From the NCBI GenBank assembly GCA_947627475.1, contig CANQWE010000001.1:7069-71068 (forward strand): a DNA stretch of 64,000 bases. The letters are read 5' to 3'. Of the stretch, positions 43,124 through 59,585 are shown piece by piece. Within the stretch, counting starts at the first letter, position 1. The number at the start of each line of letters is the position of its first letter. This DNA comes from an uncultured Clostridia bacterium (GTDB taxonomy: Bacteria; Bacillota; Clostridia; Oscillospirales; CAG-272). The notes beneath the pieces were generated by a model. That model was not told where the DNA came from. It saw nothing but the letters and a program-made list of their open reading frames with translations, and ran no database searches. The translations under genes were made by a program, and so were the position numbers.

Positions 43124-43851
43124 TGCGTGATTACAAAGCTGAATTGGAAAACAGAGTTGCCTTTATACAGTCTGTTATAGAAGAGAGCGGAGCCGCAGGA
43201 ATTGTCTATGGAAACAGCGGCGGAAAGGATTCCGCTTTGGTGGGTATTCTCTGCAAGGCTGCCTGTGACAATACAGTGGGCATCATTTTGCCCTGTACTT
43301 CCCGGCGGAATTATACCCAGGACGCCGCAGATGCAGGGGAAGTTGCCTCCAGGTACCATATTGAGACCCGTACCGCAGACCTGACCCCTGTCAAGGAGGC
43401 GGAGCTTCAGGCACTTAACGGAGTGACCGCGCCAAACGCGGCGGCGCTTGCGAATATAGCACCCCGTCTGCGGATGCTTACGCTGTACGCGGTTGCGGCG
43501 TCGGAAAACAGATTGGTTGCCGGTACCGGAAATAAAAGTGAAGCCTATGTAGGGTACTTTACAAAATGGGGCGACGGGGCGCACGATTTTAATCCCATTG
43601 GAGATCTGACCGTCACGGAGATTTACGAATTTCTGCGGTATCTGGACGCACCTGCATGTGTGATGGAAAAAGCGCCGTCGGCAGCGCTTTTCGATGGACA
43701 GACAGATGAAACGGAAATGGGCGTTACCTATGCGCAGCTGGACGCGTTTCTGGCCGGAGAAAGGATCCCGGAGGATAAAAAGCAGATTGTGGAGCGCATG
43801 CATCAGGCAAGCGCCCATAAGCGGCAAGGCATTGCAGTGTATAAGCCCTAA
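43120..43851 (+). CDS. nadE: NH3-dependent NAD+ synthetase
   Basis: GNSGGKDSALV (PP-loop), GTGNKSE, 243 aa. Confidence 0.85.
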   Translation: MMRDYKAELENRVAFIQSVIEESGAAGIVYGNSGGKDSALVGILCKAACDNTVGIILPCTSRRNYTQDAADAGEVASRYHIETRTADLTPVKEAELQALNGVTAPNAAALANIAPRLRMLTLYAVAASENRLVAGTGNKSEAYVGYFTKWGDGAHDFNPIGDLTVTEIYEFLRYLDAPACVMEKAPSAALFDGQTDETEMGVTYAQLDAFLAGERIPEDKKQIVERMHQASAHKRQGIAVYKP

Positions 43852-43930: not shown

Positions 43931-43966
43931 AGAAAAAGCACTTCTCATAAGAAGTGCTTTTTCTAT
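43931..43966 (+). terminator. Intrinsic terminator ending the purA...nadE transcription unit
   Basis: agaaaaagcacttc-tcat-aagaagtgctttttct. Confidence 0.75.
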
Positions 43967-44390
43967 GACAGAAGTACACGGACTGGAACTATATAAGGCA
44001 ATTTTTATACTTCCGTATTATTTTTGCAATGCCCATAAACATGGGGACCTCTGAAATTTATCAATACAAACGGTTCTATGGCTTTACCTATTATGACGCT
44101 GTAAAGGGTTACATTCATTACAGTGGATAGGAGTAACAACAATCTCCCAATCACCCGTATCAACAGCCCCTGCGCGGATCCGCAGAAGATACTCACATAA
44201 GTTTTTGCTTTCCCCCTCCCTTATTAAAGATCGTTCCAATCATCTCGAATATGCAAAGGCTTGTTAAATAAGTATATTTGTATTTAAATTCCCAATGGTT
44301 TTCGTACCTTTTTCTTGTAATCAAATAAAATTGTACGTTTACCAACCTTCCTGGGACTGCTTGTAAAAGGATAATAACAGGTTCATTCTG

Positions 44391-46940
44391 CTAAAAAGCT
44401 GTTTGTGATTTCACTTCATGAAAGCTATCGCCCCATTCGCTGACCGCATAAAATTTATTATTTATGTATAAAAGTGCAGTTTGATTTAAAAACGGATGAC
44501 AGCCACTGTTGTAGGAAGGAATGATTACAGATCGAGTAAATAAATTTCGTAAATACAAAGATTTATCATTTGAATTTATATATAGAATACTCTTTTCATT
44601 ATGCCATGGGTTTGCAATTACCTGCATAATACAGTATTTTCCATTCACTGTTTTTCCCATATAAGTATATCCATTGCCATCCATTTGAATTGGTAATTTG
44701 CTGCGAATATAATGGATTTCTTCACTACCATCGCAGTTGTTGTCTACAATAATCAAGGCATTGTTTTGGTTTTTCTGCATTTCGTCTACAGCAATGACAG
44801 GATAATCTACAAGGATATTCGGATAATCGGTATTTGTTTTCGGATGTGAAAAAGTGTCGCAAACACGTTTTAACATATCGTCCTGCGTGTTACAATTGAC
44901 AATTCTCAAGGCTGTCATATATACATCTAACAAGCCTGTTCCTTTGTAGTGACAAATACTTTTACAAAAGTCTTCTGAAACAATAAATCCCCCTGTAAGT
45001 GTGTTTTTCAATATGACTTCATTGTCATAATATTTTTTAAAAGTCAATTTTTTATCATTTATTAAAATAAAAAAGTTTTCCCTGTCCAGTTGCGGGGGCA
45101 AAATTATTTTCAGCCCAGTGCAGTTTTTTGCTTGAATAATCATATTGTATCCTACAATTTCCAGAGCGACTTCTGCATAGGATGTTCCCTTTAAAATTGA
45201 CTCAATTTCAATATAATAAGCTTTTCTGCAACGATTTCTTTCCGTACGGTAATAAATTATATCAGGGTACGCGTTAAGCTCTTCAGACATAAGTAAATCA
45301 ATGGATCGTTTTGTATATTGTACCCTTTTTAGCTCTATATCCGCATTATAATACTTGTGGACAAAAAGAAAATGCAAATTTCTAAGAGCTTTTTCAAGTT
45401 GTTTTCTTTCCTTTAGAAATGGATCGTTTTCATTAATGGATGCAATCAAATGAAACCAACGAACATTATATAGATTATCTATATTGGGCCGATATGCGTT
45501 TGTCAATCTTGTATAGATACCGGCAAACAAATGCGGAAACGCCTGCACTAAATTTATTAAGGCAATGTTTCCGGCGCAATGGGAAATTGCATAAATCCTT
45601 TTTTTATTGATACGAAACCGATGCAATATGTCTTTGATTTCATTCAGCAAAAATGTTTCACCCATATAACTTCCTAAAGTACACCCCCGGCCTCCTATGT
45701 CGGCGCAAATAACATCATCTCTTTCTGCAAAATGATTGGAATAATTGGACTCCAATATTTCAGGAGGATAATCTGATATATATCCATGAGAAATGGTGAG
45801 CAGGAGTGAATACTCTTTTTCAGGATCAAAATTTTGCGGCAAAACGATATAGTATTGATAAAAATGTTTATCCTCATCGGAATAATAGCAATAAAAATGC
45901 TGTCCGGGGTGATATAAGTACTCCTGGATTTTGTTGTTTTGCACTGCGTAAAGAATCTTTTTTAAATTGCTCCCATAATAAGTATCTGTGTCAACGGTTT
46001 TTAATTTGTCAATATAATAGTGAATTTCATTTTTTATAAGTTCGGGGATATTATTCCTTTTAAGCAGTTCCTTTGCTTGTTCTTGTAGTTCTCTTAAATA
46101 GTCCGGAGCAGCATAGTACCGAAAAAGCGGTATGGATTTACAAGATACCTGTCCGCAAGTGTCTTCTGCATAAAAAAATGCATAGAGCAGATTGTACTTA
46201 TCTTCCTCCATATTAGGCAAAAAGGAAAGATCTATTTTATATTCCTTTTGAAAACTTAACTTTGCTTCAAACAGTATTTTACCGGTTTTTTCGCTTTTTA
46301 TAAGCATCTTGATTTTCGAATTGTAGTCAAAATGGATCAAGTCCAGGGGGATCAGCGAAAATGCAAAGATTTTATCTTCCTGAATAAAAATGGATTGTAC
46401 ATTGATAAGAAAATCCTTTGGTTTAAACCAGTAATTTTGATCCGTCAGAGACAACAGCGAACCGCAGGATTTATTTATGCTTTCTATTCTGACTGTAGGA
46501 ACCGTTTGACAATAGGAAAGCAAAACACCATATTCAATACAAAATATATTATATCCTTTATTCAATGTAACAGTATACAACATGTTTTCATGGCCAATAA
46601 ATACAATTTTTCCGTTGAGCCAATGTCTGAATTTGTCGTTTTTATCTCCTGCTATCCGAGGAAAATATGTGATTTGCGTTTCTTCCTCTGCTTCGACAAT
46701 AAAAAAATGTACATATTTTCTATAAAACCCATGTGGTGTTTCCTCATTTCCTGAAGCGTTGTGTATTTCCGTTTCCATACGGTAGCCTTTACACAAATGC
46801 ATGATATATTCGATTTCAGGAATAGAGTTTTCGTAATAGTTATATTTTGTCCAATCGTACAGCTTTTTGGAAATTACGCCCATTTTATCCGGCATGATCG
46901 CTTTGTCCGTCAGTTTGTATGTAATATCCAGTAATTTCAT
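44391..46940 (-). CDS. Large cytoplasmic protein with central S9/esterase-like alpha/beta-hydrolase domain carrying Cys at the nucleophile elbow
   Basis: YYIVLPQNFDPEKEYSLLLTISHGY, ADIGGRGCTLGS, KKRIYAISHCAGNIALINLVQAFPHLFAGIY (Sm-x-Nu-x-Sm with Cys), downstream ENDPF and a His. ATG 46940 (MKLLDITYKL) is preferred over the track start at 46958. Confidence 0.5.
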   Translation of the reverse strand: MKLLDITYKLTDKAIMPDKMGVISKKLYDWTKYNYYENSIPEIEYIMHLCKGYRMETEIHNASGNEETPHGFYRKYVHFFIVEAEEETQITYFPRIAGDKNDKFRHWLNGKIVFIGHENMLYTVTLNKGYNIFCIEYGVLLSYCQTVPTVRIESINKSCGSLLSLTDQNYWFKPKDFLINVQSIFIQEDKIFAFSLIPLDLIHFDYNSKIKMLIKSEKTGKILFEAKLSFQKEYKIDLSFLPNMEEDKYNLLYAFFYAEDTCGQVSCKSIPLFRYYAAPDYLRELQEQAKELLKRNNIPELIKNEIHYYIDKLKTVDTDTYYGSNLKKILYAVQNNKIQEYLYHPGQHFYCYYSDEDKHFYQYYIVLPQNFDPEKEYSLLLTISHGYISDYPPEILESNYSNHFAERDDVICADIGGRGCTLGSYMGETFLLNEIKDILHRFRINKKRIYAISHCAGNIALINLVQAFPHLFAGIYTRLTNAYRPNIDNLYNVRWFHLIASINENDPFLKERKQLEKALRNLHFLFVHKYYNADIELKRVQYTKRSIDLLMSEELNAYPDIIYYRTERNRCRKAYYIEIESILKGTSYAEVALEIVGYNMIIQAKNCTGLKIILPPQLDRENFFILINDKKLTFKKYYDNEVILKNTLTGGFIVSEDFCKSICHYKGTGLLDVYMTALRIVNCNTQDDMLKRVCDTFSHPKTNTDYPNILVDYPVIAVDEMQKNQNNALIIVDNNCDGSEEIHYIRSKLPIQMDGNGYTYMGKTVNGKYCIMQVIANPWHNEKSILYINSNDKSLYLRNLFTRSVIIPSYNSGCHPFLNQTALLYINNKFYAVSEWGDSFHEVKSQTAF

Positions 46941-47059
46941 TGGTTTTATTCCTTTCAAAAGAATCTGCTTCGGATATTATTCTAAGGGGAAACTTGGGGC
47001 AAGCGCACGACAGCACAGGTCGCGTACTATCTCCCCAGTTTCAAATTTGCTTCGGACAA

Positions 47060-48865
47060 TTACTCTGATACCGGGGGAGCGGCGGCTTCCTGATATTTTT
47101 TTGCCTGGACCCGGAACATTTCAGCGTATTTACCATTCATCCGCATCAATTCTATATGTGCTCCGCATTCGACGATTTCACCGTTTTCCAAAACATATAT
47201 CCTATCCACATCCCGCGTCGTTGAGAGTCGATGGGAAATCGTGATAACCGTCTTTTCCTGTGCAAATGCCTGTACATTTTTGTTGATTTCATATTCAGCA
47301 ACAGGATCCATAGCAGAGGATGGTTCATCCATAATGATGATGTCATATGGACGGACGAGCACCCGCGCTATAGCAAGTTTTTGTGCTTCGCCGCCGGAAA
47401 GATTTATACCTGTATCATCAAATTCTTTGGTCAGTCCGGTTTGTATCCCGCGAGGCAGGTTTTTTAATCTGTCGCTGAATGTACACAATTCCAGCGCCTT
47501 AATAATCGAAGCCTTTTCCTCTCCATCGTAACTGTCGCGCAGGACATTTTCTGCGATGGAAGTGGCAAAGATCTGAAAATCCTGCAGTACCACGCCAAAA
47601 CGGGATTGGTAGGACCTGCATGCATATTTCCTGATATCCATTCCATTATAAAGGATCTTTCCCTCCACCGGGTCATAAAGATGCAGCAACAGCTTAATCA
47701 GGGTGGTTTTGCCTGCGCCGTTATATCCTACCAGCGCGATTTTTTCCCCGCGTTTTATAGAAAAGTCAATATGGCGCAGAACTGGTTTATTTACAGCGTA
47801 ACCAAAAGAGACATTTTGCAGGGTCAGCGACTCGAAGGGCTCTGGCACCATAGCATCCTCCGGGGAGGAGACGGTATACTCCATAAACGCGCGCAGCTTT
47901 TTTATATAAATACCATGCTCCGGAAGCTTTACAAGCTTGTCCACAATATCCTGCAGACACCATCTGAGCGCCCAAAAAGACGACAAGGCCACTGCAAGTC
48001 CAGAAATCGACACGGTATTGGAAATCATAATTTGATACAGCAAAATGATGTAAATAAAAGGTTCCACAGCACTTGTAAGTATTTTGCCTGCCATAACATT
48101 TATGCAGTTTTTTTTCAAATACTTCTCTTCAACCTCCCGAATCTGTTCAAGCGTTTCCCTATGTTTGTCCCAGATCAGTTCGTTTACGTGGCTGATTCTG
48201 ACCTCCTTTGCAGTATCCGGAAGGGAATAGATCCTCTCATAGTAGCTTATTTTCCGATTTTTAGGCGTTGTTTCCAATGCACTTTGTAATTGAATCTTTG
48301 CGCTGGCTTTTTGTATAAACAACGAAAGAATACTTGCGGCGACAGCTGCCAGACTCAGTGCCGGACTGATGGAAAAAAAGAGCGTTACAATCGTAATAAA
48401 ACTCGTAGATGATAAGATAATAGCCGACAAGGTTTCCATAAGCCCAACGGCACGGGTATCACTTTGACTGACAGACCAGACAAAATTGTCATAAAACTCT
48501 GTATCATCGTAACTGGAGATGGGGATGCTTTTGGAGATCTCAAACAGCTCTGTATGCATTCGATATTCCAGTACCTGCCTTTTGCAGCGGCGCGTCACAT
48601 TGTAGTAGTACTGCTTAATGATTTGAAAAATGACAATAAAAGCAAAGATTCCTGCAATGCCCCCAAGAGCAGTGATAAACGACGCGTTGTTATTGATATA
48701 GTCATAAAATACCTTGATGAACAACACCTGAACAGAGTTATTGAGACCCTCCAACACACCGAAAATCAGTTCCCATATGAGCAGTCCGGGAGTGAATTTC
48801 CAAATGAGCCGAAGCATGAACCAGTCGTTTTTCAAGTTTTCCAAACGATCTCGCTTCTTTTTCAA
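47060..48865 (-). CDS. ABC exporter, fused permease/ATPase (heterodimer partner 2)
   Basis: 6 TM N-terminal half. GYNGAGKTTL, LSGGEAQKLAIAR, IIIMDEPSSAMD. ATGA overlap with the upstream ABC gene. No N-terminal peptidase domain. Confidence 0.85.
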   Translation of the reverse strand: MKKKRDRLENLKNDWFMLRLIWKFTPGLLIWELIFGVLEGLNNSVQVLFIKVFYDYINNNASFITALGGIAGIFAFIVIFQIIKQYYYNVTRRCKRQVLEYRMHTELFEISKSIPISSYDDTEFYDNFVWSVSQSDTRAVGLMETLSAIILSSTSFITIVTLFFSISPALSLAAVAASILSLFIQKASAKIQLQSALETTPKNRKISYYERIYSLPDTAKEVRISHVNELIWDKHRETLEQIREVEEKYLKKNCINVMAGKILTSAVEPFIYIILLYQIMISNTVSISGLAVALSSFWALRWCLQDIVDKLVKLPEHGIYIKKLRAFMEYTVSSPEDAMVPEPFESLTLQNVSFGYAVNKPVLRHIDFSIKRGEKIALVGYNGAGKTTLIKLLLHLYDPVEGKILYNGMDIRKYACRSYQSRFGVVLQDFQIFATSIAENVLRDSYDGEEKASIIKALELCTFSDRLKNLPRGIQTGLTKEFDDTGINLSGGEAQKLAIARVLVRPYDIIIMDEPSSAMDPVAEYEINKNVQAFAQEKTVITISHRLSTTRDVDRIYVLENGEIVECGAHIELMRMNGKYAEMFRVQAKKYQEAAAPPVSE

Positions 48866-50673
48866 GTGTCATCGCCCCCTTTGATATAGTTTTCTGCCTG
48901 GATACGAAACAACTTTGCATATTCTCCGTTTTTGTCCATGAGTTCCTTGTGATTGCCGGATTCTAAGATCCGTCCGTTTTCCAGCAAATAAATCCTGTCT
49001 GCCAATGTTGCGGAGGACAAACGGTGTGAAATCAGGATCATGGTGCGATTGCGGCAGGCTTTGATCATATTTTCGTACATTTCATACTCTGCGATGGGAT
49101 CTAAGGCAGAGGAAGGCTCGTCCAATATAACAACAGGGCAATCCTTTGCATACACATGGGAAATCGCCAGCTTCTGATTTTGACCTCCGGACAGGATTTC
49201 CCCCTCATTGTCAAATTCACGGTCGAGCACTGTATGTATGCCGGATGGCATTTGCCTGACACGATTATACAATCCGCTTTTTTGCAGCGCGTCAATTACG
49301 ATCGGATCGTCATCGTCCTGCGGCCGCCTAAGCAGTACATTTTCCTTGACAGTCATGGAGAAGTGGCGATAATCCTGCAGCACGGTAGCAAAAAGATCAT
49401 GGTATGTAGACAAACGATACTTCTTAATATCCCTGCCGTTGAGTTCAATGACGCCTTCTGACGGATCATATAAACGGAGAAGCAGTTTGATCAGCGTAGT
49501 TTTTCCCGCTCCGTTGTGCCCTACGATCGCAATCTTTTCTCCCTCGCGGATACGGAGAGAAATATCCTTTAGTATGTATTCGTTGTGTTCTCCATGATAT
49601 TTAAAGGAGACATGCTTGAGCGAAATATCCCCGGCCTTTGCAGAGGGTGCTTCCATATCTTCTCGGATCCCCTGCTGATACTCCATAAATTGTCTTAAAT
49701 TATTTATATACAGAGAATGCGAATACATTTGTGCGATGCTGGCATTCAGAGTGTCAATGCTTGCGCTTACCCGCGCCACTGTATTGATCAGCACAAGACA
49801 GTCTCCATAAAGCATTCGTTTTGTTCCCAGCGTTTGCCATGCAGCATACGCAAACAGAAGAGAATGAGATAAAAAGGTACTGGCAACAATGATCAGCAAC
49901 TCCCAGAAAGCCAGACGTACGCCCTTGGAACGATATATGCGAATAATTTCATCGGCTGCCTCTTTGTACTGCCTTAAAATGACCTTAGAAATATTAGACA
50001 GGCGCAATTCGGCTGCGTAATCCCGTAGATAAAATGTTCTTACAGTATATTGCTTTTTTCGCTCGGCACTTGTTTTGGATTGGTCCAAGTCAAAACTCAA
50101 ATAGTTTTTTTTCTTCCGGATTTTATTTACAAGAAAGGGGAAAAAAGCAAATATCAGTACCAGCGGATCGATCAGGCACGCAAGGATGCCGCTCCCCACC
50201 AAGGAAATTCCGGCGTTGATGACCGTAATGGAACTATTGAATACTGCGTCTACACGACCGGAGCATTCGGCCATCGCACGGGTATATGTATTATAATACT
50301 CCGGGTCCTCGTAGCAAAACAGCTCACATTCAGCCATCTTTTTCAGGGACATTGTTTTCATTTTGCGATGGATCGTATATGTAAAATACGGCTGTAGCTT
50401 GACATCCACGCAGGATGTCACGATGTGATAAACCACATAAATCAAAAACAGGATACACAGAAACTTGACAGCGTCAAAATAATTTCCGCCGGTTTGTGCG
50501 ATGTTTACCGCATAGCGAAGGAAATACAGGTTGACCAGACCCAGCAAAGTATCAAGAACTGTAATAAGCGTCGTATATAATATTTTCCACGGACACGCCT
50601 TCCATAAAAGCCTCAGCATATAAAAATTGTTGGACAGCGCCTTCAGAAAGGACTCTTTGTTTTTCTTTTTCAT
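48862..50673 (-). CDS. ABC exporter, fused permease/ATPase (heterodimer partner 1)
   Basis: GHNGAGKTTL, LSGGQNQKLAISH, VVILDEPSSALD. Start ATG 50673 (MKKKNKE) or GTG 50685. Confidence 0.85.
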   Translation of the reverse strand: MKKKNKESFLKALSNNFYMLRLLWKACPWKILYTTLITVLDTLLGLVNLYFLRYAVNIAQTGGNYFDAVKFLCILFLIYVVYHIVTSCVDVKLQPYFTYTIHRKMKTMSLKKMAECELFCYEDPEYYNTYTRAMAECSGRVDAVFNSSITVINAGISLVGSGILACLIDPLVLIFAFFPFLVNKIRKKKNYLSFDLDQSKTSAERKKQYTVRTFYLRDYAAELRLSNISKVILRQYKEAADEIIRIYRSKGVRLAFWELLIIVASTFLSHSLLFAYAAWQTLGTKRMLYGDCLVLINTVARVSASIDTLNASIAQMYSHSLYINNLRQFMEYQQGIREDMEAPSAKAGDISLKHVSFKYHGEHNEYILKDISLRIREGEKIAIVGHNGAGKTTLIKLLLRLYDPSEGVIELNGRDIKKYRLSTYHDLFATVLQDYRHFSMTVKENVLLRRPQDDDDPIVIDALQKSGLYNRVRQMPSGIHTVLDREFDNEGEILSGGQNQKLAISHVYAKDCPVVILDEPSSALDPIAEYEMYENMIKACRNRTMILISHRLSSATLADRIYLLENGRILESGNHKELMDKNGEYAKLFRIQAENYIKGGDDT

Positions 50674-50771
50674 AGACGTCCCCACTTCTCAGATTTTTCT
50701 ATAATTTCCCCGTAAAAATGATTTTTGTAAGCCAATATTAATAAAAATTTATATTGATTCAGGTGGCAGGA

Positions 50772-51590
50772 TCATTTATAGTCGTCACTATAGGCGATCC
50801 AGCGTCGCGGCAGTTTGAATCCGCCTCCGGTTTGTAATTCCATATTATTCAGCAATATGGAATTACAGCACCCCAAAGTATAAATATGCAGTATATCACC
50901 CTGAAAAGCGGTACAGACAGGGGGCAGCGCCTCATATGGCTCCATAGAGAAATACGAAAATTTCAGACCGGCGGTTTGCTGGATCCTGCAGTGATACCGT
51001 GCAAAATTTAAAAGCATTTTAGTCATAAAACAAATTCCAGTATAAAGCTGTGCAGAACAGTATTCCTTAATGTCTCCGTTTTCAATCGGCACATATGGTG
51101 CATTTGTATGTATCTGTGTGGTCAGATCAATAATATAATAATGCTGATTGGTATATATGTAGTTCATGGTATGCCCCGACCCATCCGGACGGATATATTG
51201 GATATATCCCCTGTCGGGATAACGATTCTGAATAACATAGTTGAACCACGCAGCCGCGGATGCACAGCACCCCTCTCCGGTTTCCACAGCATATTTACCG
51301 GATTTGTGCATCTCCCAGGTTCTCTCGCCCGCTTGAAAATAAACGATATCGTTTGTTTCTTCAAACAGGCGAACACACTGAAACAGTTGGATCGCTTCAT
51401 ATGCATTGAATCCCAGCGACCGTATTTTATCCGCCGGTTTTCGCGCAGTCAATGCATATATTTCCTCGTTTGTAAAACGGCTGCTTCCCAAAACATTCAC
51501 GGGGACCCAAAACAAATCTTTTGCAATTTGTGTTTTAAAATCTGCCCCATGCCGCAAATTGATGGTATCATACGAAGTGTGAAGGTACAT
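50772..51590 (-). CDS. Hypothetical Cys-His-Asp protein, transglutaminase/papain-like fold (peptidase or acyltransferase)
   Basis: GEGCCASAAAWFNYV ... GSGHTMNYIYTNQHYYIIDLT has the spacing of a transglutaminase-core C...H...D triad. AGGGAGGG SD before ATG 51590; alternative ATG 51611 abuts the upstream stop. Confidence 0.45.
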   Translation of the reverse strand: MYLHTSYDTINLRHGADFKTQIAKDLFWVPVNVLGSSRFTNEEIYALTARKPADKIRSLGFNAYEAIQLFQCVRLFEETNDIVYFQAGERTWEMHKSGKYAVETGEGCCASAAAWFNYVIQNRYPDRGYIQYIRPDGSGHTMNYIYTNQHYYIIDLTTQIHTNAPYVPIENGDIKEYCSAQLYTGICFMTKMLLNFARYHCRIQQTAGLKFSYFSMEPYEALPPVCTAFQGDILHIYTLGCCNSILLNNMELQTGGGFKLPRRWIAYSDDYK

Positions 51591-51611
51591 AAGCCCTCCC
51601 TTTCTGTACAT

Positions 51612-53420
51612 TTAATCACAGAAAAAGTTGATACAATCTTCAAAAAGGCGCCGGTCATCGTCATCATTGCCCAAAATATAAGCTGGCTTTCCGGTCGCTC
51701 CGGTAACCGTCTTACAAAACCTTTTCAGATCGGATGCGGGTATTTCTTTTTTTACCATGCTCATCGCGCTCCATTCATTTGGAAATCCTATCGGAAACAC
51801 TTCGAATGCAATAACATGGCAATCTGCCAGGGATTCCACAAAAGCGGCCGATCTTTTGATCATATCTATAGAATCGTGGGGATTGATGCAAAGTATTGCC
51901 GCGTCAGGATTTGCTCCAAGCAAAAACTCCGTGGAAGCGATGTTATAGGTAGACAAATTGTCAAAGGAAAGGGTAGCGACGCCGGATTGCGCACCTGCCA
52001 AAATGATATCCGGTTCTTGGATATCCAGCTGATGCATCAAATAATTTACGTGTTCAATGCCAAAATGTCCACTTATATCCACCGTTCCGTCATAGCCGTA
52101 TGGATAAACGGCCTCCATGCCGAAAAGGCCGCCTTCCGGCTCACTGGACAGTTGACCAATTTCGTAACCGTTTTCCAAAAATAATTCTCTCAGTTTCAGC
52201 TGTAAGGAAAACTTCCCCTGTTGGCTGGAGGTTCCTACAACAGCCAGTACTGGAGAAAACACCTCATATAATTTCCCAAATTTATTAGAGGACTGTTGGG
52301 TTCGGTTTATAACGGGAACATAAATTTTCTTTTTCCTTTCAGCAGATAATGCACTTACATAATCGGTATCAAAGGATACAATGTTGATATTGTTTTTTAT
52401 ACATGCATCTATTATCCTCTGCTTATAATCAACAAAAACCTTTATAGACAATTCATTTACATGTCCGATAATAAAAGTGTCTATTCCCTCCAAATCGATA
52501 TTTTCAATATTTTCAATCGTACAGCACAGATCCCTGCGACTGTTAAATACCGTCTTTCCCACATGTCCAGAGAATCTGCTGTCATAAAGCCGTTCAATCG
52601 TAAACGGCAGCAAATGCGCAAATCGAATCAGGCTTTGCGTTTCTTTGTTGTAAGGAAAAACGGCGGCCATACGGATGTCAAACAGATCTGTTTTATATTC
52701 CGGACTTTTGTCATTAAAAGATACAACCTTGCTTGCATTTTCTTTTAATACCGGCAAAATGTTTTTATAATCTACTCCATGATCAAGCAACGTGCAGATT
52801 TTTGCTGTCAAAACAGGCGCCACAAAACTGTTTCCCCTCACTATAGCATACTCTGGACCCGTCCAGGCTACTCTTTGAGGAGATGCCATCATTCCAATAT
52901 TTATTAGGCTATTTTCCACATAGATATATTCCTGAAAGCTATTTAGCTGCATTGTAGAATCAACGCCGATTACACAAGGATAAGCAGCAGGATAAGAAAT
53001 GGCTCCCATATTGCAAAACGCTGAAACGATCATGACTCCGCTACGGTAAAGCTGATCGCATATTTCCTCAAGTTCAGGCAAATGCTTTCGAATGCCGGCG
53101 CTAATATTTATAATCTGACAAGCGAGCGAATCATTGTGGGTATAAATATATCGCAGCGCGTCAATCAACACCTCCGGTTCAGCCTCCTCATTGCTCCCTT
53201 CTATAATTTTGAAAGAGGTGATTTTAACATTTTTTTCATTTTTATATAAAACATGAGCAACAGCTGTTCCGTGACCATTTTGTATATTGTTCTGCCGCGT
53301 TACCTGCCAGCCTGTGCCATCATCAAGATAGGAATATTCCGTTATATCTGCATTGGATAGCCCTTTATGCTGCGTATCTACACCTGAATCCAGGATTGCC
53401 ACATGAACGATATTTTTCAT
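51612..53420 (-). CDS. Cytoplasmic S8 subtilisin-like peptidase fused to a C-terminal P-loop (DUF1611-like / 'peptide maturation system' type) domain
   Basis: VAILDSGVD (Asp), NGHGTAVAHV (His), NISAG (oxyanion Asn), GNSFVAPVLTA (Ser). No signal peptide. The C-terminal half has VLAVVGTSSQQGKFSLQLKL, which is P-loop-like. Confidence 0.7.
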   Translation of the reverse strand: MKNIVHVAILDSGVDTQHKGLSNADITEYSYLDDGTGWQVTRQNNIQNGHGTAVAHVLYKNEKNVKITSFKIIEGSNEEAEPEVLIDALRYIYTHNDSLACQIINISAGIRKHLPELEEICDQLYRSGVMIVSAFCNMGAISYPAAYPCVIGVDSTMQLNSFQEYIYVENSLINIGMMASPQRVAWTGPEYAIVRGNSFVAPVLTAKICTLLDHGVDYKNILPVLKENASKVVSFNDKSPEYKTDLFDIRMAAVFPYNKETQSLIRFAHLLPFTIERLYDSRFSGHVGKTVFNSRRDLCCTIENIENIDLEGIDTFIIGHVNELSIKVFVDYKQRIIDACIKNNINIVSFDTDYVSALSAERKKKIYVPVINRTQQSSNKFGKLYEVFSPVLAVVGTSSQQGKFSLQLKLRELFLENGYEIGQLSSEPEGGLFGMEAVYPYGYDGTVDISGHFGIEHVNYLMHQLDIQEPDIILAGAQSGVATLSFDNLSTYNIASTEFLLGANPDAAILCINPHDSIDMIKRSAAFVESLADCHVIAFEVFPIGFPNEWSAMSMVKKEIPASDLKRFCKTVTGATGKPAYILGNDDDDRRLFEDCINFFCD

Positions 53421-53448
53421 AAAGCTTGCCTCTTTAATTGTTTGTATG

Positions 53449-53493
53449 TTTTTTTGAACAGTGAAAGGATTCCCCTTTCACTGTTCAAAAAAA
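53449..53493 (-). promoter_or_regulatory. Perfect 20-bp stem-loop immediately downstream of the candidate precursor ORF (partial terminator / mRNA stabiliser)
   Basis: tttttttgaacagtgaaagg-attcc-cctttcactgttcaaaaaaa. It begins 3 nt after the precursor stop codon. There is no 3' U-tract on the operon strand. Confidence 0.6.
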
Positions 53494-53495
53494 CA

Positions 53496-53606
53496 TTACC
53501 ACTTAAGCCCGCACATAGCGAAACTTGCTATACCTGAACAAGATTCAAAGCTGTAGGTCATTACCTTTACACGCTTGGCGCATGGCTTTCTAAGCTGCTT
53601 TTTCAT
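53496..53606 (-). CDS. Candidate RiPP precursor peptide (36 aa): MKKQLRKPCAKRVKVMTYSFESCSGIASFAMCGLKW
   Basis: Near-perfect SD AAGGAGGTGA 7 nt before ATG 53606. It has 3 Cys and a basic N-terminus, sits between the ACP-like and protease genes, and has hairpins on both sides. The same frame is open up to ATG 53744 (82 aa, ATGA overlap with the upstream gene), so the start is ambiguous. Confidence 0.55.
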   Translation of the reverse strand: MKKQLRKPCAKRVKVMTYSFESCSGIASFAMCGLKW

Positions 53607-53740
53607 GATTTCACCTCCTTTTATGTAATTATAAGAAGGGTGCAATGCCGCTGCATAGCCATTTAAATGGAGTACGAACGCATACGCAGCCCCTTCAAAT
53701 GGCCTTGCGGCATTTTCCCCGTCTTTACACAGCAAAGCGA

Positions 53741-53986
53741 TCATTCCTTCTTCAGCATCTCAACTACATCGCACACATTGCCGATGTTGCGCATCCTCCC
53801 CTGCAGTAAATATTCATCTGGGATTTCGATATCAAATGTGCTTTCAACTTCGACGATAAAGGAAATATACGTGATGGAATTATCCAAGTAGTCAAGAATA
53901 TCCACCGTATCGTCATCGTCTACAACAAAGCCCAGACTATTAAAGCATTCGATTACCTTTTTTCGTGTATCTTCCACCTGTTTCAC
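53741..53986 (-). CDS. Acyl-carrier-protein-related small protein (81 aa)
   Basis: LDYLDNSITYISFIVEVESTFDIEIPDEYL aligns by eye with the ACP helix II region ([25 protein letters not shown]). Ser is retained but preceded by Asn. The start abuts the stop of the SPASM gene. Confidence 0.6.
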   Translation of the reverse strand: MKQVEDTRKKVIECFNSLGFVVDDDDTVDILDYLDNSITYISFIVEVESTFDIEIPDEYLLQGRMRNIGNVCDVVEMLKKE

Positions 53987-55306
53987 CTACAATTCTATAA
54001 AACTATCTTTATTCATTTTATATAGAACTTTTAACACATCATTTAAATATGCATATTCACGACCGCAATTCAACTGCGCCGGATCCATGGGATTTTTATT
54101 GAAAAACAAGAGATTGCGTACACAGCTTTTTCCCTTGCAGATAGAATAGTCGGTACAACTTTTGCATCCCTCAATTGCCTTCGCGGACAAGGAATACCAG
54201 TAAGCGGCCTTGTACTCATCTATTTCCAGCTTTCCATTTATTAGTTTACCGATAGGATATTCCTGCAGCTGGGGACACAAAAATACATCTCCCAGAGTGT
54301 TTACCGTATATGTGTTTTTTTGTGCATATGAGCAAATTGCGTGAGACAGCTGTCCTTGCAAGGCACTCATATTCAGCTGCCAGTCTCCTTCTGCTAATGT
54401 CGCATAGACGTCTGACATAGAATCGATTAGCTTTCCACGCATTGCATTTATGCGGTCGCCTCCCCAATCGTAAACCGGACTGAATAGATAGGTAAAGCGG
54501 TTGTCTTTTCCAAACTCCTCCTGCACAAACGACAAATAGTCATGTAAGTTCTCTAAGACATCTGTCGTTATATTGGTCCGCAGTACGATGCGAAATTGCT
54601 GAGATTTTACATGATCACGGATACAGCGCAGATTTTCAATGATTTTATGGAATGTTCCCCCACCGTTTTTCAGCGGCCTGCTAACGTTATGCGTTTTTGC
54701 AGTTCCGTCAATCGTTATAATATACTCAAAAACTCTATACCGCAAAAGCCTTTTAAATGTTTCGTAGTCCAGCAGATAACCGTTTGTGGTAATAGAGGCA
54801 GAATACCGCCTCGATGTTTTTCTGCAGATATCGATAAATGCCTCAGATAAGGTATACAACGAATCCCTTGCTAAAAGAGGCTCTCCCCCAAACCAGGCAA
54901 CATTCATTTCGGTATATTGGCCGATGTTCCTTTTGGCATACGTAATGAGGTCCTGTATAACACTTTCTTTTATATGGGATCTTTGAAAGTCGTCAAAACA
55001 ATACTGACAACCAAAATTGCAGCTTTCTGACGTCAATATTGTAAAATGCAGCGAACTGCTATTGATGATTTTTTCATGTAAATCATCCCCTTGTATGCTT
55101 TCGTCTATAGAAGCGGGCACTACAAATCCATGGTCCCTTAACCTGCCCATCATTTTTTCCGGAACTGTATCAATACTAAGCGGTAAATTGCGAAGGGATA
55201 TTGGCTGCAAATATCCCATTGTATTTCGCAGCTTATTATAAAGCAAAAGCGTTTCCGTTTTGTCTATGTATGTGTAGTGATTAAACTTTGAAAACTTCAA
55301 TTCCAT
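53987..55306 (-). CDS. Radical SAM / SPASM-domain peptide maturase
   Basis: SESCNFGCQYCF (CX3CX2C). The C-terminus has CSYAQKNTYTVNTLGDVFLC (CX13GX4C), CKSCTDYSICKGKSC and a further Cys, consistent with auxiliary Fe-S clusters. Confidence 0.85.
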   Translation of the reverse strand: MELKFSKFNHYTYIDKTETLLLYNKLRNTMGYLQPISLRNLPLSIDTVPEKMMGRLRDHGFVVPASIDESIQGDDLHEKIINSSSLHFTILTSESCNFGCQYCFDDFQRSHIKESVIQDLITYAKRNIGQYTEMNVAWFGGEPLLARDSLYTLSEAFIDICRKTSRRYSASITTNGYLLDYETFKRLLRYRVFEYIITIDGTAKTHNVSRPLKNGGGTFHKIIENLRCIRDHVKSQQFRIVLRTNITTDVLENLHDYLSFVQEEFGKDNRFTYLFSPVYDWGGDRINAMRGKLIDSMSDVYATLAEGDWQLNMSALQGQLSHAICSYAQKNTYTVNTLGDVFLCPQLQEYPIGKLINGKLEIDEYKAAYWYSLSAKAIEGCKSCTDYSICKGKSCVRNLLFFNKNPMDPAQLNCGREYAYLNDVLKVLYKMNKDSFIEL

Positions 55307-55307
55307 T

Positions 55308-56849
55308 TTATCGCCTGCCCGTTTTATTTGCCAAATACTGCAAATATCTTTTATCCTTGGACAATTTCCTCATGACAACCTGTATATCGCTGTAACACTT
55401 TCGGATAAGTGGATTATATTTCTTCATTATTTTATGTACGTCGGTTTCTGTAAAAATCAGTTCAAAAAACATTTCAAATTTTATATCGCGTAAATCTTTT
55501 ATAATGGGCCGGGTTGCTTTCTGAAAGTTGTGGACCGCCCCCTCGTCATACACATTCATTACACTCAAAAAACAAGATCGAAAATCAAGATATATTGCTT
55601 CTTCCGTGTAATACTGGGATAACCGGTTTGCCGCGCCAAGTCTTTCAGCAATATGACCAGCATCCGGATGCAAATAATTGTAGTCAAAGGTGTTCAGGTA
55701 AGAAAAGGTATCCTTTAGCAGTCCCATGTTTTCTGTTCTGGTATACATTTCGGAGCCATAATTGACTGAAAGCCGTGTATTAAAATGGTAATCGTAGAAG
55801 AAACCATACTTTTTTGAAAATGTATAATTTGTTTGAATGGATTCTACCGTGCTAAGCGGATTCAAGTTTATAAATCCACAATCGATATAAAAATCATTCT
55901 TTAAAAGCAGTTCTAAAGTCGCAATATTCTCATCCTTTGAAACACGTTTGTTATAATAAATCAAATCATTGTCATCAAAAGACTCGATTCCCAGCAGTAC
56001 AAATAAAAATCCCGATTCTTTCATTTTTTTGAGCAAGGGCTGATCTTTCTCCGTAAAGCCTTTTACTCTCGTATTAAAATTTATCGTAAATTTTTGTGGA
56101 TACTGTAATAATAAATCACAAAACGCATCGATTCGTTGTTTCCCGATAGTACCTGGGCTTTCAAATGCACTATCATTTATTAGGAAAGCAATAATTCCAT
56201 ATCGTTCATACGTATGGACTATTTCTTCAAAAACATCTTGTATATTTCTCCCACGCCATACGATCCTCTTTTTGTTCAGACAATAATTTTGGGTACAAAA
56301 ATGGCACCGGCCTATACAGCCCCGCGCTGCTTCTATTTTAACAATTGGCAGATTTTTGAGGTATTTGTCTTGCAGCAATACATGATCCACCACATGGTAA
56401 TGTTTCATGTTGAAAACATATTGCTTTTTTAGGGACAAATCATCGCCATTTCTGTATATATAATTTCCATTTTCTATACCACCTAAATAATCTATGATTG
56501 GTATTTCATAATCCCCCAAAACAATAAAATCGATTTCCGGACAATCTTCCAATATTTTTTCTGCACACAATGTTGCAAAAGAACCTACGAGAAAAACTTT
56601 GATTTTTTTCTCAATATTTTTGATTTTTCTTACCAGTGAATAGATAAACGGAACGGTCGCTGCGTCAGAATTAAAACATAAATGGGAATACTTGCAGAAA
56701 TCTTCAATAGCAATGCTGCCTTCATGGTCAAATGCTGCGTTCAGAGACACAATATGAACAGTACATATTTCTGTCAACATGGAATACAAATGCTCCAGAT
56801 GAACATCCTCTTTTATAACTTTGTTATAAACGTTTGCCAATAATACCAT
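55308..56849 (-). CDS. B12-binding-domain radical SAM enzyme (class B, methyltransferase-like)
   Basis: The N-terminal Rossmann-like segment KVFLVGSFATLCAEKILEDCPEIDFIVLGDYEIPIIDYL, then EAARGCIGRCHFCTQ (CX3CX2C). Confidence 0.8.
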   Translation of the reverse strand: MVLLANVYNKVIKEDVHLEHLYSMLTEICTVHIVSLNAAFDHEGSIAIEDFCKYSHLCFNSDAATVPFIYSLVRKIKNIEKKIKVFLVGSFATLCAEKILEDCPEIDFIVLGDYEIPIIDYLGGIENGNYIYRNGDDLSLKKQYVFNMKHYHVVDHVLLQDKYLKNLPIVKIEAARGCIGRCHFCTQNYCLNKKRIVWRGRNIQDVFEEIVHTYERYGIIAFLINDSAFESPGTIGKQRIDAFCDLLLQYPQKFTINFNTRVKGFTEKDQPLLKKMKESGFLFVLLGIESFDDNDLIYYNKRVSKDENIATLELLLKNDFYIDCGFINLNPLSTVESIQTNYTFSKKYGFFYDYHFNTRLSVNYGSEMYTRTENMGLLKDTFSYLNTFDYNYLHPDAGHIAERLGAANRLSQYYTEEAIYLDFRSCFLSVMNVYDEGAVHNFQKATRPIIKDLRDIKFEMFFELIFTETDVHKIMKKYNPLIRKCYSDIQVVMRKLSKDKRYLQYLANKTGRR

Positions 56850-57102
56850 TCCTGTACATCACTTTCTGAATGTATTTTTTAAATAGTCCATTGCAAGCAC
56901 GTTTATGACTATATCTGTCCTTTATCTACAAAAAGCAAATATGTTCGTAAGTCAACAGCCCATACCGCCGCAGCAGATATACACATTACAAAACATGTGG
57001 AAGGGGGGCATACTGAACATACGTTTGCAAAGAACCGCTGGATTTCAAGATACCGAAAAATGACGTCTTAGATAAATTTTATAAGAATTATAACTTTGTT
57101 TT

Positions 57103-57131
57103 ATTTTAACATTCTCTGTTTTAATTGTCAA
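57103..57131 (-). promoter_or_regulatory. Sigma-A type promoter of the peptide-maturation operon
   Basis: Minus strand TTGACA (57131-57126), 17 nt, TAAAAT (57108-57103). It lies ~250 nt upstream of the first gene. Confidence 0.5.
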
Positions 57132-57610
57132 TATATTCCATAAAAAAAGTTTAACGCTGTTATAAATTTAGAAAAAATGATGAAAAAAAAAAACATAATG
57201 TAAATATTTTATATTCCATCTATTAACTGATGCAGGAGCGGAGACGTAAATATTTACAAATTCGCTGTCTGTGGTGCTGTAAAATTACACTTGAAAATGA
57301 AAAACTGTTGAAAGCCTTTGTATGATAAGCACCTGCAAATGGTTTAAATCCAGTCGCTTCTATTCCGGGCAGAGCATGGATCCAAGCGCTTCGGAGTTTT
57401 TTAAGACATCCGCCTCTTCGGACAGACTGCTTATGCGTTGAACATATGCAAACATGCAACAGAACAGATGCGGTAGGACAGTGCTTCCCGGATGGAACAA
57501 TTGATTCAGCGAATCATCAGCTGACGGAAAAGAGGCCCTGTGGCCTCTTTTCCTAAGTTTCTGATTCTGAAAAGGGTAAAAAAGAGTAAAAGGCCATTTT
57601 TGCAAAATAA

Positions 57611-57647: not shown

Positions 57648-57723
57648 TGGCAGGGGCACAAAGACTCGAACTCTGGACACGTGGTTTTGGAGACCACTGC
57701 TCTACCAACTGAGCTATACCCCT
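57648..57723 (-). tRNA. tRNA-Trp (anticodon CCA), CCA end encoded
   Basis: Minus strand AGGGGTATAGCTCAGTTGGTAGAGCAGTGGTCTCCAAAACCACGTGTCCAGAGTTCGAGTCTTTGTGCCCCTGCCA. Cloverleaf folded by hand: 7-bp acceptor, D arm GCTC/GAGC, anticodon stem GTGGT/ACCAC with loop CTCCAAA, T arm CAGAG/CTTTG with TTCGAGT. Confidence 0.95.
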
Positions 57724-57836: not shown

Positions 57837-59252
57837 TTACTGTAAATAAGGGATCACCTTTGGAATATCCCCCGCTCCCATTATGAGAAACATATCTTTT
57901 TCGCTGCCGTGCTCGTTGAGGTATGCCGCAATATCCTGAAATTGTGCAATAAACCGGCAGGGTACTCCCTTTTGTACAATGGCGTCGGAAAGGCGCTCAG
58001 CGCTGACGCCGTATGTGTTTACTTCCCGGGCAGAATAAATGGGAGCCAGTACGATTTCTCCCTGCTGCATGTTTGAAAGCGCGTCTGTAAAGGCGTGGAA
58101 CAGCCGACTGGTTCTGGAATAGGTATGGGGCTGAAATACGCAGAAGATCCGGTCATACCCCATCTGTGCCGCGGCAGACAGGCTGGCTGCAATTTCTGTC
58201 GGATGGTGGGCGTAGTCGGAATAGATGGCCGCGCCGCATCTTGCCGCGCCGCAAAGCTCCATCCGCCGGCCCAGACCCTGGAAGGAGGCGAGAGCCTGGG
58301 ATATATCCTTTCCGGATATGCCGCACAGATGGGCTGCCGCCGCTGCGGCAAGGGCATCGCACACAGCATGGGCGCCGGGCACATGCAGAGACACACTACA
58401 CAAGGGCGTTTTCTTGTGGCGGATGGTGAACCGCGCGCACCCTTTTTGGAAGGATATGGAGTCCGCGCAGTAGTCTGCCTCCGACTCTTCCACCCCAAAA
58501 GTAACTAGCTTTCCGGTATAACCCTGGGCGGCCCGCATAACATCGTCGTCGCAGCAATTTACAAGCGCGATTCCACTGGGACCGGTTCGTTTCAGGAATT
58601 TATGAAAAGAGGCGTGGATTTGTTCCATAGAATGGAAGTAATCCACATGGTCCATTTCAATATTCAAAATAATGGCGATCGTGGGATAAAAGTCCAAAAA
58701 AGAATCCATATATTCACAGGCTTCAAAAATAAAGTATTCCTCTCCCCCGATCCTGTGTGTGCTGTTCTGACTCATCATTCGGGCGCCGCAGCTTACGGTA
58801 GGATCCAGTCCCGCGTCGGAAAATACCTTTTCCAGCATCGATGTGGTGGTGGATTTTCCATGCATGCCGCTGACGCCGATCCGGCAGCCGTACCCGGACA
58901 TCAAATATCCAAGATAATCTGCTCTGGATACGCACGGTATTCCTGCACGCTGTGCCGCGGCATATTCCGGATTGTCCGCCGGCATAGCCACAGTATATAC
59001 CAGCATATGGCATCCTTCTACGTGTGCTGGGTCTGCTTCATAATATACTGTGATACCGCTCTCTGCAAGCTGGCGGGTGATATCGGAGGGTGTGCGGTCA
59101 TATCCGCTGACAATATGGCCCCGCAGCTGCGTCACCCGGGCAAGGGAGCACATACTGATGCCGCCGATGCCTGCAAAAAAAATTTTTTTCGCTCCCCCGG
59201 AGAGCATTTTCTCAATTGTATCAGCCCCCAAATGCGTGTTTTGTAATGCCAT
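57837..59252 (-). CDS. murC: UDP-N-acetylmuramate--L-alanine ligase
   Basis: IFFAGIGGISMCSLA, GVSGMHGKSTTTSM. ATG 59252 (MALQNTHLG) is preferred over the longer track ORF. Confidence 0.85.
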   Translation of the reverse strand: MALQNTHLGADTIEKMLSGGAKKIFFAGIGGISMCSLARVTQLRGHIVSGYDRTPSDITRQLAESGITVYYEADPAHVEGCHMLVYTVAMPADNPEYAAAQRAGIPCVSRADYLGYLMSGYGCRIGVSGMHGKSTTTSMLEKVFSDAGLDPTVSCGARMMSQNSTHRIGGEEYFIFEACEYMDSFLDFYPTIAIILNIEMDHVDYFHSMEQIHASFHKFLKRTGPSGIALVNCCDDDVMRAAQGYTGKLVTFGVEESEADYCADSISFQKGCARFTIRHKKTPLCSVSLHVPGAHAVCDALAAAAAAHLCGISGKDISQALASFQGLGRRMELCGAARCGAAIYSDYAHHPTEIAASLSAAAQMGYDRIFCVFQPHTYSRTSRLFHAFTDALSNMQQGEIVLAPIYSAREVNTYGVSAERLSDAIVQKGVPCRFIAQFQDIAAYLNEHGSEKDMFLIMGAGDIPKVIPYLQ

Positions 59253-59585
59253 ACGTTTTGACCATGCCTTTCTCTGCAATTGTGACAGTTTGCCGGCGGC
59301 GCATAAAGATGGGTTTGAAAAACAGGGTTTAGGCTGTTTTGACTTATAAACTCTCTGCCGTCGTTCGTTCACAAAATTCGCCAAAAATTTTAAATCAGAT
59401 TTTTCTTTTCTTTCACAGTATTATTATATCATTTCGCTTAGATTTGTGTTATAGTTATATTGTACCATAAATTGATGCAAATACAAAGCCCGGCGGTCAA
59501 ATTTTTTGGTACTGCGCATACTGTCAGAAAATCAGCGGATACTATGAACAGCAATTTCATTTAACATTATGAAAGGAAGGCTACT

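Follow-up and report, generated by a model that had tools for sequence, protein, structure and literature searches.

A 36-codon open reading frame as the likely precursor gene of a radical SAM peptide cluster in an uncultured Clostridia bacterium

The DNA analysed here, hereafter the window, is a stretch of 64,000 nucleotides from an uncultured Clostridia bacterium (contig CANQWE010000001.1, positions 7,069 to 71,068 of the forward strand); coordinates below are those of the window. A low-GC island of some 13 kb (approximately 43950-57250; about 40% GC compared with 50-54% in the flanks) contains a minus-strand operon that encodes, in order, a B12-binding radical SAM (rSAM) protein, an rSAM/SPASM maturase, a protein resembling acyl carrier proteins (ACP-like), a small open reading frame (ORF), a fusion of an S8 protease with a DUF1611-like domain, a 279-amino acid (aa) protein, two ABC proteins and an 855-aa orphan. 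The small ORF, the sole one of its kind within the window, is the subject of this report. In its 36-codon form, from the ATG at 53606 to the TAA at 53496, it is very likely a translated gene that encodes the precursor of a ribosomally synthesised and post-translationally modified peptide (RiPP), with the rSAM cluster around it as the maturation pathway. The gene and its ribosome-binding site are as follows.

53496..53606, minus strand: precursor peptide gene, short form, 36 aa, MKKQLRKPCAKRVKVMTYSFESCSGIASFAMCGLKW; homologues at the same position, 10 invariant residues
53611..53620, minus strand: Shine-Dalgarno (SD) site, AAGGAGGTGA, read directly; contains GGAGG at 53618..53614

Read directly, the frame is open over 53496..53744 on the minus strand, giving 82 aa when counted from an upstream ATG at 53744, which forms an ATGA overlap with the TGA that ends the ACP-like gene. 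The internal ATG at 53606 has the GGAGG motif 7 nt upstream and opens a frame of 36 codons (111 nt), the product of which has three Cys residues, a basic N-terminus and a C-terminal Trp. All of these features had been listed in the initial annotation, and the ORF, both ATGs, the SD spacing and the ATGA overlap were found again on re-reading together with the residues named. Its remark that both parts of the frame are noticeably richer in GC than the island genes holds in part: at 43.2% for the short ORF and 45.7% for the extension, the values exceed those of the ACP-like and S8 neighbours (40.7-41.0%), but the margin is slight and the ABC genes of the island reach 44%. When the 138 nt of the extension were shuffled, 5.7% of the shuffles had no in-frame stop, so an open stretch of 46 codons is only mildly unusual. 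Neither the 36-aa nor the 82-aa form of the peptide matched a curated family in NCBIfam or Pfam.

Relatives of the rSAM maturase at 40-64% identity were traced to their contigs, which were then read for small ORFs. The order rSAM, ACP-like, small ORF, S8/DUF1611 fusion was identical wherever the contig runs past the rSAM gene; the comparison leaves out L008 and L009, short contigs that end before that region. A peptide of 33-37 aa lies between the ACP-like and subtilisin/DUF1611 fusion genes in nine lineages, with the consensus MKKxLRKP..K.KV..Y.FE.CS....F..CGL[KR]W-stop. Homologous peptides at the compared loci (L numbers) are given below.

L004-7: MKKVLRKPYAVRIKVLAYDFEECSVSGTFNPCGLKW
Fumia xinanensis (L003; not called in its record): MKLRKPSKRVAKVMIYSLECSKSSSFSGCGLRW
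L010: MKKLVKPTFNAPKVSAYVFESGCNGVVGSFSYCGLKW
L011: MKKRLVKPATKQVMVAAYTAESCNGNFGTCGMRW
L012: MKRKLRKPVARKMKAMLYSFKECSQSGTFTSCGLRW

All the related clusters examined thus have a homologous small ORF at this position, which bears out its earlier proposal as the structural gene of the rSAM/ACP-like/protease cluster and disposes of the notion that no small ORF is conserved there. When the ORFs beside homologous SPASM/ACP-like pairs were aligned, the comparison that had been recommended for choosing between the two starts, the conserved portion proved to be the short form and the extension had no counterpart. Two further members, P0143 and P0144, were the only credible additions when 1.84 billion representative proteins were searched with a profile. 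The family is thus a real one, if rare by lineage. The lineage of L012 is represented by more than 700 public contigs. The representatives yielded seven peptide clusters; in five the annotated product is 34-37 aa long, and in the other two the gene caller had chosen a start further upstream. Related loci were retrieved by hmmsearch with the peptide family at E values of 1e-17 to 1e-23.

The initial Met of every member aligns with the internal ATG of the window, and ten residues are invariant in the family alignment (M1, L5, K7, P8, Y18, C23, F29, C32, G33 and W36). Two core Cys donors are conserved, C23 and C32, and Cys9 varies; the three Cys residues noted earlier are all in the window peptide, but only two of them characterise the family. 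Each invariant residue with degenerate codons shows synonymous codon variation across the lineages, which argues that the short ORF is translated and shows, at the level of sequence comparison, that the short frame is under protein-level purifying selection. The suggestion that the region might be an untranslated spacer is accordingly hard to sustain for these 36 codons. Six clusters, that of the window included, were read as DNA for SD sites and hairpins, and a strong SD precedes the peptide start in all five of the others. The locus has what is looked for in a RiPP precursor, namely a small ORF that keeps its place beside a maturase gene and joins a conserved leader to a core in which only key residues are fixed.

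The leader would comprise residues 1 to approximately 20-22, a basic segment of the form KKxLRKP...KV..Y..E, and the core approximately residues 21/23-36 (C23 ... F29 .. C32-G-L-K-W36), ending at the stop codon. Support for this division came from more distant clusters in GTDB genomes, with rSAM identity of 28-37%, found by a scan with the rSAM alignment; Fumia xinanensis was not among the matches listed in that scan, and a genome scan with a single rSAM protein as query gave no matches. In about 20 distant clusters among the matches listed, between one and four small ORFs come after the ACP-like gene; they open with MKK.L.KP ... [LF]Y..E and continue into very different cores, many of them Cys-rich and often without aromatic residues. 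Since the leader motif is shared by these clusters, the core of the window peptide can be placed roughly at (E)SCSGIASFAMCGLKW. A basic motif ahead of so many different cores is therefore a genuine short leader; the conserved leader and variable core show the classic RiPP pattern as read from sequence, and a leader of about 20 residues appears normal for this enzyme group. The concern that a leader of about 17 residues would be too short for rSAM recognition does not survive this comparison, since a similar short basic leader precedes diverse cores in all of these clusters. L013, L022 and L027 carry two to four tandem precursor genes with a common KKL.KP leader and differing cores.

Variation within the window's own lineage is concentrated in the same segment of the peptide gene.

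53515..53553, minus strand: allelic hot-spot at the leader/core junction and in the core; 10 of the 11 differences of the ORF from L001

Over 11.4 kb the Logan contig L001 shares 99.76% identity with the window; of the 27 differences, 11 fall in the 111-nt short ORF and two more in the spacer upstream of it. The changes in the short ORF are S19G, G25Q, I26S and M31W together with four synonymous ones, and the hot-spot holds all four replacements as well as synonymous changes. If differences are assumed to be independent, the Poisson probability of such clustering in the short ORF is approximately 3e-17. Both core alleles are present in public assemblies. Because synonymous divergence is raised too, short-patch exchange with a diverged allele is likelier than selection on point mutations alone. 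Such a pattern suggests pressure on the product towards diversification or allele exchange, as is typical of peptides of competition or signalling.

The segment between the ACP-like gene and the internal ATG, which would be translated from the upstream start, has a different character.

53607..53740, minus strand: 134-nt intercistronic spacer (the supposed 46-codon N-terminal extension), assessed by minimum free energy (MFE), shuffles and lack of a homologue

The extension is confined to the lineage of the window and has no counterpart in eight other lineages, in which the spacers that follow the ACP-like gene are 54-384 nt long. Stop codons stand just upstream of the peptide start in L003 and L004, and L012 has a different open extension of 19 codons that is not homologous to that of the window. 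Gene callers returned products of 34-37 aa in five of the eight other lineages and of 79-82 aa in the window's lineage, where the long frame is open in all sequenced alleles. Protein searches with the 82-aa form gave matches from the same lineage only. No homologue of the spacer was found in other clusters and no repeated copy of it in the window or the compared loci, and Rfam matches to the region were limited to chance hits to hairpin-like miRNAs, all below the gathering score. The spacer folds with an MFE of -56.8 kcal/mol (z -5.7 and -5.3; 0 of 200 shuffles equally stable), and in the outer helix of the predicted fold the region of the ACP-like stop codon pairs with the peptide gene's SD and start. 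Just two substitutions separate it from L001 and L002 (53680 and 53672), one in a hairpin loop and one changing a G-C pair to G-U; both preserve the fold and are non-synonymous in the long frame. The argument from two substitutions is weak on its own, and the absence of the extension elsewhere is the main evidence against the long form. We read the spacer as a lineage-specific structured RNA and not as coding sequence. The initial annotation had held that the long form could not be dismissed; it largely can be, because the extension is without counterpart, callers elsewhere favour short products, the segment folds as an RNA would and its substitutions spare the fold and not the protein. A TATAAT sequence 20 nt before the ATG was considered as an internal promoter and rejected, there being no acceptable -35 element and no promoter reported there by a promoter scan.

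A second structured element, not mentioned in the initial annotation, follows the peptide gene.

53444..53499, minus strand: perfect 22-bp hairpin with U/A runs on its flanks, overlapping the stop codon; -33.4 kcal/mol, z -9.9

Hairpins of unrelated sequence stand at the same post-stop position in all six clusters read as DNA (z -5.9 to -11.8), consistent with a terminator or attenuator by which the precursor message is enriched. The element in the window probably acts as an intrinsic terminator or attenuator, or as an mRNA-stabilising hairpin, between the precursor and protease genes.

The remaining features of the operon are listed in the order of transcription.

57103..57131, minus strand: candidate operon promoter, TTGACA, 17 nt, TAAAAT, with upstream TG; 11/12 consensus match, the best of the region, by consensus match only
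55308..56849, minus strand: B12-binding rSAM protein, 513 aa; Pfam B12-binding and Radical_SAM, weak NCBIfam matches
53987..55306, minus strand: rSAM/SPASM peptide maturase, 439 aa; Pfam Radical_SAM 56.6 bits, CxxxCxxC, SPASM Cys
53741..53986, minus strand: ACP-like protein, 81 aa, carrier-protein Ser kept (LDNS37I); weak ACP-model and TIGR04069 matches
51612..53420, minus strand: S8 protease and TIGR04066/DUF1611-like fusion, 602 aa; Peptidase_S8, DUF1611
50772..51611, minus strand: conserved 279-aa orphan protein; no Pfam, NCBIfam or PDB match
48862..50685 and 47060..48865, minus strand: two ABC permease/ATPases; ABC_tran, ABC_membrane, like bacteriocin/NHLP exporters
44391-46958, minus strand: 855-aa orphan, also in L001

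The maturase has ten Cys residues that are invariant in 20 homologues, C96, C100 and C103 of the CxxxCxxC motif and C325, C344, C381, C384, C390, C395 and C414. Its best NCBIfam match, TIGR04463, scored 175.8 bits against a cut-off of 525, and the same model was the top curated rSAM model for all ten relatives, at 140-219 bits for the set, which makes none of them a member. An AF2 model (pLDDT 90.6) places strands at residues 3-33 and helices at 50-81 ahead of the rSAM core, and in this model the N-terminal strand/helix domain of about 85 residues may bind the leader. Compared with the PDB, the model was closest to CteB (5WHY/5WGG, TM 0.66-0.68) over nearly its full length, followed by anSME, TigE, SuiB and ChlB; weaker NCBIfam and structural matches include the cyclophane formers YhhB and GrrM, as well as DynA and SuiB. 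Since CteB is the best structural match and the core holds two invariant Cys residues, thioether cross-linking is the most likely chemistry of the modelled enzyme.

The B12-binding rSAM protein would be an accessory tailoring enzyme, possibly a C-methyltransferase. Its gene is present in the clusters of L003, L004 and L012 and absent from those of L010 and L011. Among six clusters it is present where the peptide has Cys-Ser at residues 23-24 and absent where it has Cys-Asn, a correlation that may be due to chance.

The ACP-like protein scored 18.7 bits against PF00550 (gathering threshold 20.8), and its best NCBIfam ACP model gave 26.9 bits against 72. The Ser at the phosphopantetheine position is invariant in 22 diverse homologues within a D-S-[ILVF] motif (N-S-I in the window), which suggests, as far as sequence can, that the protein really is phosphopantetheinylated, unusual for a RiPP pathway. 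Its gene was always accompanied by a DUF1611-like domain in the clusters compared. The fusion that supplies this domain is conserved in at least 15 clusters; its N-terminal S8 part has an invariant D11/H50/S198 triad and neither signal peptide nor propeptide, which fits an intracellular leader peptidase such as QhpE. Its scores against the QhpE-like model (93 bits) and TIGR04066 (74 bits) are both below cut-off. The S8 domain matched subtilisins in the PDB, including the lantibiotic leader protease CylA, and the DUF1611-like domain gave just a marginal match there (2G0T, E 0.38). The fusion may thus combine a leader peptidase with a second activity.

The 279-aa protein has invariant Cys116 and His147 and is found in the window and in L001, L003, L010, L011, L012 and L031, where every peptide ends in [KR]W, and no cluster with such a peptide ending is without it; in the distant L031 the peptide ends in …ESCGGGCSMLKW. 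A single-sequence AF2 model of the protein (pLDDT 33) was unusable. The pair of ABC genes, conserved in L001, L003, L010, L011 and L012, appears from its sequences to encode a heterodimeric exporter. Three sister clusters have a papain-fold gene (BtrH_N/C39-like/phytochelatin-synthase-like) at L010 1105-2091, L011 12535-13425 and L012 8154-9182; the window's cluster is without it and has the 855-aa orphan in its place. The 279-aa protein showed no profile similarity to these BtrH_N-like proteins. An AgrB-family gene stands just upstream of the homologous cluster in L012 (1229-1807) and hints at a signalling context there; the window has none.

The island is bounded by genes for NAD synthase (43120-43851) and murC (57837-59384), and a tRNA-Trp(cca) gene (57648-57723, minus strand) lies at its upstream edge. 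The RiPP island was probably acquired at the tRNA site. A search for att-like direct repeats at the island edges, including a copy of the tRNA end at the far edge, found none.

On the reading preferred here, the basic leader (MKKxLRKP...KV..Y..E) would dock on the N-terminal domain of the rSAM/SPASM enzyme, a CteB-like protein with a full SPASM Cys set, which would then cross-link the core, most likely through thioethers from C23 and C32. The B12-binding rSAM protein would provide an optional tailoring step, the cytoplasmic S8 domain would remove the leader, and the two ABC proteins would export a product of about 14-16 residues ending in CGLKW. The ACP-like protein with its invariant Ser, the DUF1611-like domain and the 279-aa protein may carry out a further step, and the post-stop hairpin probably raises the ratio of precursor transcript to that of the downstream enzymes.

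Several alternatives were weighed against a short, thioether-bearing precursor. That the 82-aa product of the ATGA-coupled start is the real precursor or a second isoform, with the Ala-rich 46 residues as a longer leader, is very improbable. The overlap exists, few shuffles are open over the 46 upstream codons, all alleles of the lineage keep the frame open and callers report the long product, but the extension resembles no protein, is missing or non-homologous elsewhere, gives way to stops in L003 and L004 and folds far better than its shuffles, with substitutions that alter the protein and suit the fold; the internal start, moreover, is served by a near-ideal SD, and its Met is the exact point at which the conserved leader motif begins. 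Still less credible are the readings that the peptide is a bacteriocin or signal left unmodified, or that the ORF arose in the spacer by chance. The AgrB gene near one sister cluster would suit a signalling peptide, but strict synteny with maturase genes in every lineage, protein-level constraint and the leader/core architecture common to about 20 clusters among the matches listed speak against both versions, and a chance ORF is excluded by conservation at the hmmsearch E values given above. A short precursor with other rSAM chemistry is possible, though we think it unlikely: the link might be a carbon-carbon bond to Y18, F20, F29 or W36, as in streptide or the cyclophanes, or the reaction might be epimerisation, with the Cys residues forming a disulfide or serving another role. 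The conserved Tyr, Phe, Phe, Lys/Arg and Trp residues and the weaker matches to YhhB, GrrM, DynA and SuiB would suit such chemistry, but the best structural match is the thioether-forming CteB, and the distant Cys-rich cores, often lacking aromatics, point to Cys as the common substrate feature.

A carrier-dependent modification, perhaps alongside rSAM cross-linking, is somewhat more doubtful again, though it is the most interesting possibility left for the ACP-like protein. The phosphopantetheinylated Ser would deliver an acyl or aminoacyl group, which the DUF1611-like domain or the 279-aa protein would transfer to the peptide, for example to its new N-terminus or to K35. The invariance of that Ser in 22 diverse partners, the obligate co-occurrence of the ACP-like gene with a DUF1611-like domain and the BtrH_N-like papain-fold genes of sister clusters favour it, BtrH being an ACP-dependent acyltransferase. 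The cluster, however, is without a phosphopantetheinyl transferase, acyl-ACP synthetase or adenylation enzyme, the PP-binding match falls below the Pfam gathering threshold, and the ACP-like protein could be a mere structural partner of the rSAM enzyme. A bolder proposal, distinctly unlikely at present, is a new RiPP class in which the ACP-like carrier and the protease-fused DUF1611-like domain couple leader removal to acylation or aminoacylation on top of rSAM cross-links, with a hypervariable core setting strain-specific activity of a pherotype-like or bacteriocin/immunity-like kind. Four observations weigh against the short, thioether-bearing precursor itself. None of the cluster's components reaches a curated family threshold. 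Its chemistry is read from fold similarity and conserved Cys residues, and kindred SPASM enzymes also catalyse epimerisation or the formation of C-C, C-O and C-N cross-links. Every sequenced member of the window's lineage keeps the long ORF open, and some initiation may occur at the ATGA-coupled start alongside the short form. Finally, the predicted outer helix of the spacer would mask the SD, which is odd beside high precursor expression unless the masked site could be opened by upstream translation or RNA processing.

Expression of the pathway requires the correct substrate, now fixed as a 36-mer of which about 20 residues form the leader, and the cluster offers a tractable entry point because it is compact and found in cultured Clostridia (Fumia xinanensis). 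The peptide constitutes a small precursor family without a curated model. It sits in a broader superfamily, numbering some 20 clusters or more, whose hallmarks are the short leader motif KKxL.KP...Y..E, the invariant Ser of the ACP-like protein and the fusion of the protease to DUF1611. The cluster also bears on the roles of ACP-like and TIGR04066/DUF1611 partners, a question since the CLI_3235 system was defined.

That system, CLI_3235/CcpM (TIGR04065-69), is the closest analogue, exemplified by the SacP23 cluster of Paenibacillus polymyxa, the gene table of which served as the architecture comparison (PMC10731318). The modifications of SacP23/CLI_3235 have not been determined and the system was defined by TIGRFAM bioinformatics (PMC10731318). 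Literature searches on the peptide family, DUF1611 in RiPPs and FlmE/OhkG returned nothing bearing on the cluster beyond the SacP23 paper. The two systems share a short-leader Cys precursor, an rSAM/SPASM enzyme, an ACP-related protein, a TIGR04066-type protein, a subtilisin-like protease and an ABC exporter, and this architecture is conserved across the clusters compared. The matches to the individual models are specific but weak: the maturase gave 74.4 bits against TIGR04068 CcpM (cut-off 500), the ACP-like protein 25.0 bits against TIGR04069 (cut-off 70) and the C-terminal domain of the S8 protease 74.4 bits against TIGR04066 (cut-off 200). TIGR04065 (cut-off 26 bits) matched neither the 36-aa form at E<=10 nor the 82-aa form at E<=0.01, and two of the distant superfamily leaders gave 9-11 bits. 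In the window, unlike CLI_3235/CcpM, the TIGR04066-like domain is fused to the protease, a B12-binding rSAM protein and the 279-aa orphan are added, and the core has two conserved Cys residues and a fixed CGL[KR]W C-terminus in place of the Cys-rich 42-mer of CLI_3235.

In structure the maturase is closest to the SCIFF system (CteA-CteB), nearly over its full length, with a putative N-terminal domain of the leader-binding type and a SPASM region; the window peptide is likewise short and its Cys residues could act as donors. Unlike SCIFF, the maturase identity is 16-18%, the TIGR03974 score is 60 bits against a cut-off of 425 and the precursor is unrelated, and SCIFF clusters have no ACP-like or DUF1611 partners. 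The Qhp system (QhpC/QhpD/QhpE/QhpF) resembles the window in its rSAM/SPASM thioether former, intracellular subtilisin-like leader protease and ABC exporter, and QhpE is the best NCBIfam match of the S8 domain (93 bits, below the cut-off of 165). QhpD links Cys to Asp or Glu, and an acidic residue adjoins a conserved Cys in the window peptide. Unlike Qhp, the substrate is a free 36-mer and not an enzyme subunit, and there are no dehydrogenase genes. The cluster is most likely a sister group, without a curated model, of the CLI_3235/CcpM system, itself known from bioinformatics only, and is carried by a few lineages of gut Clostridia.

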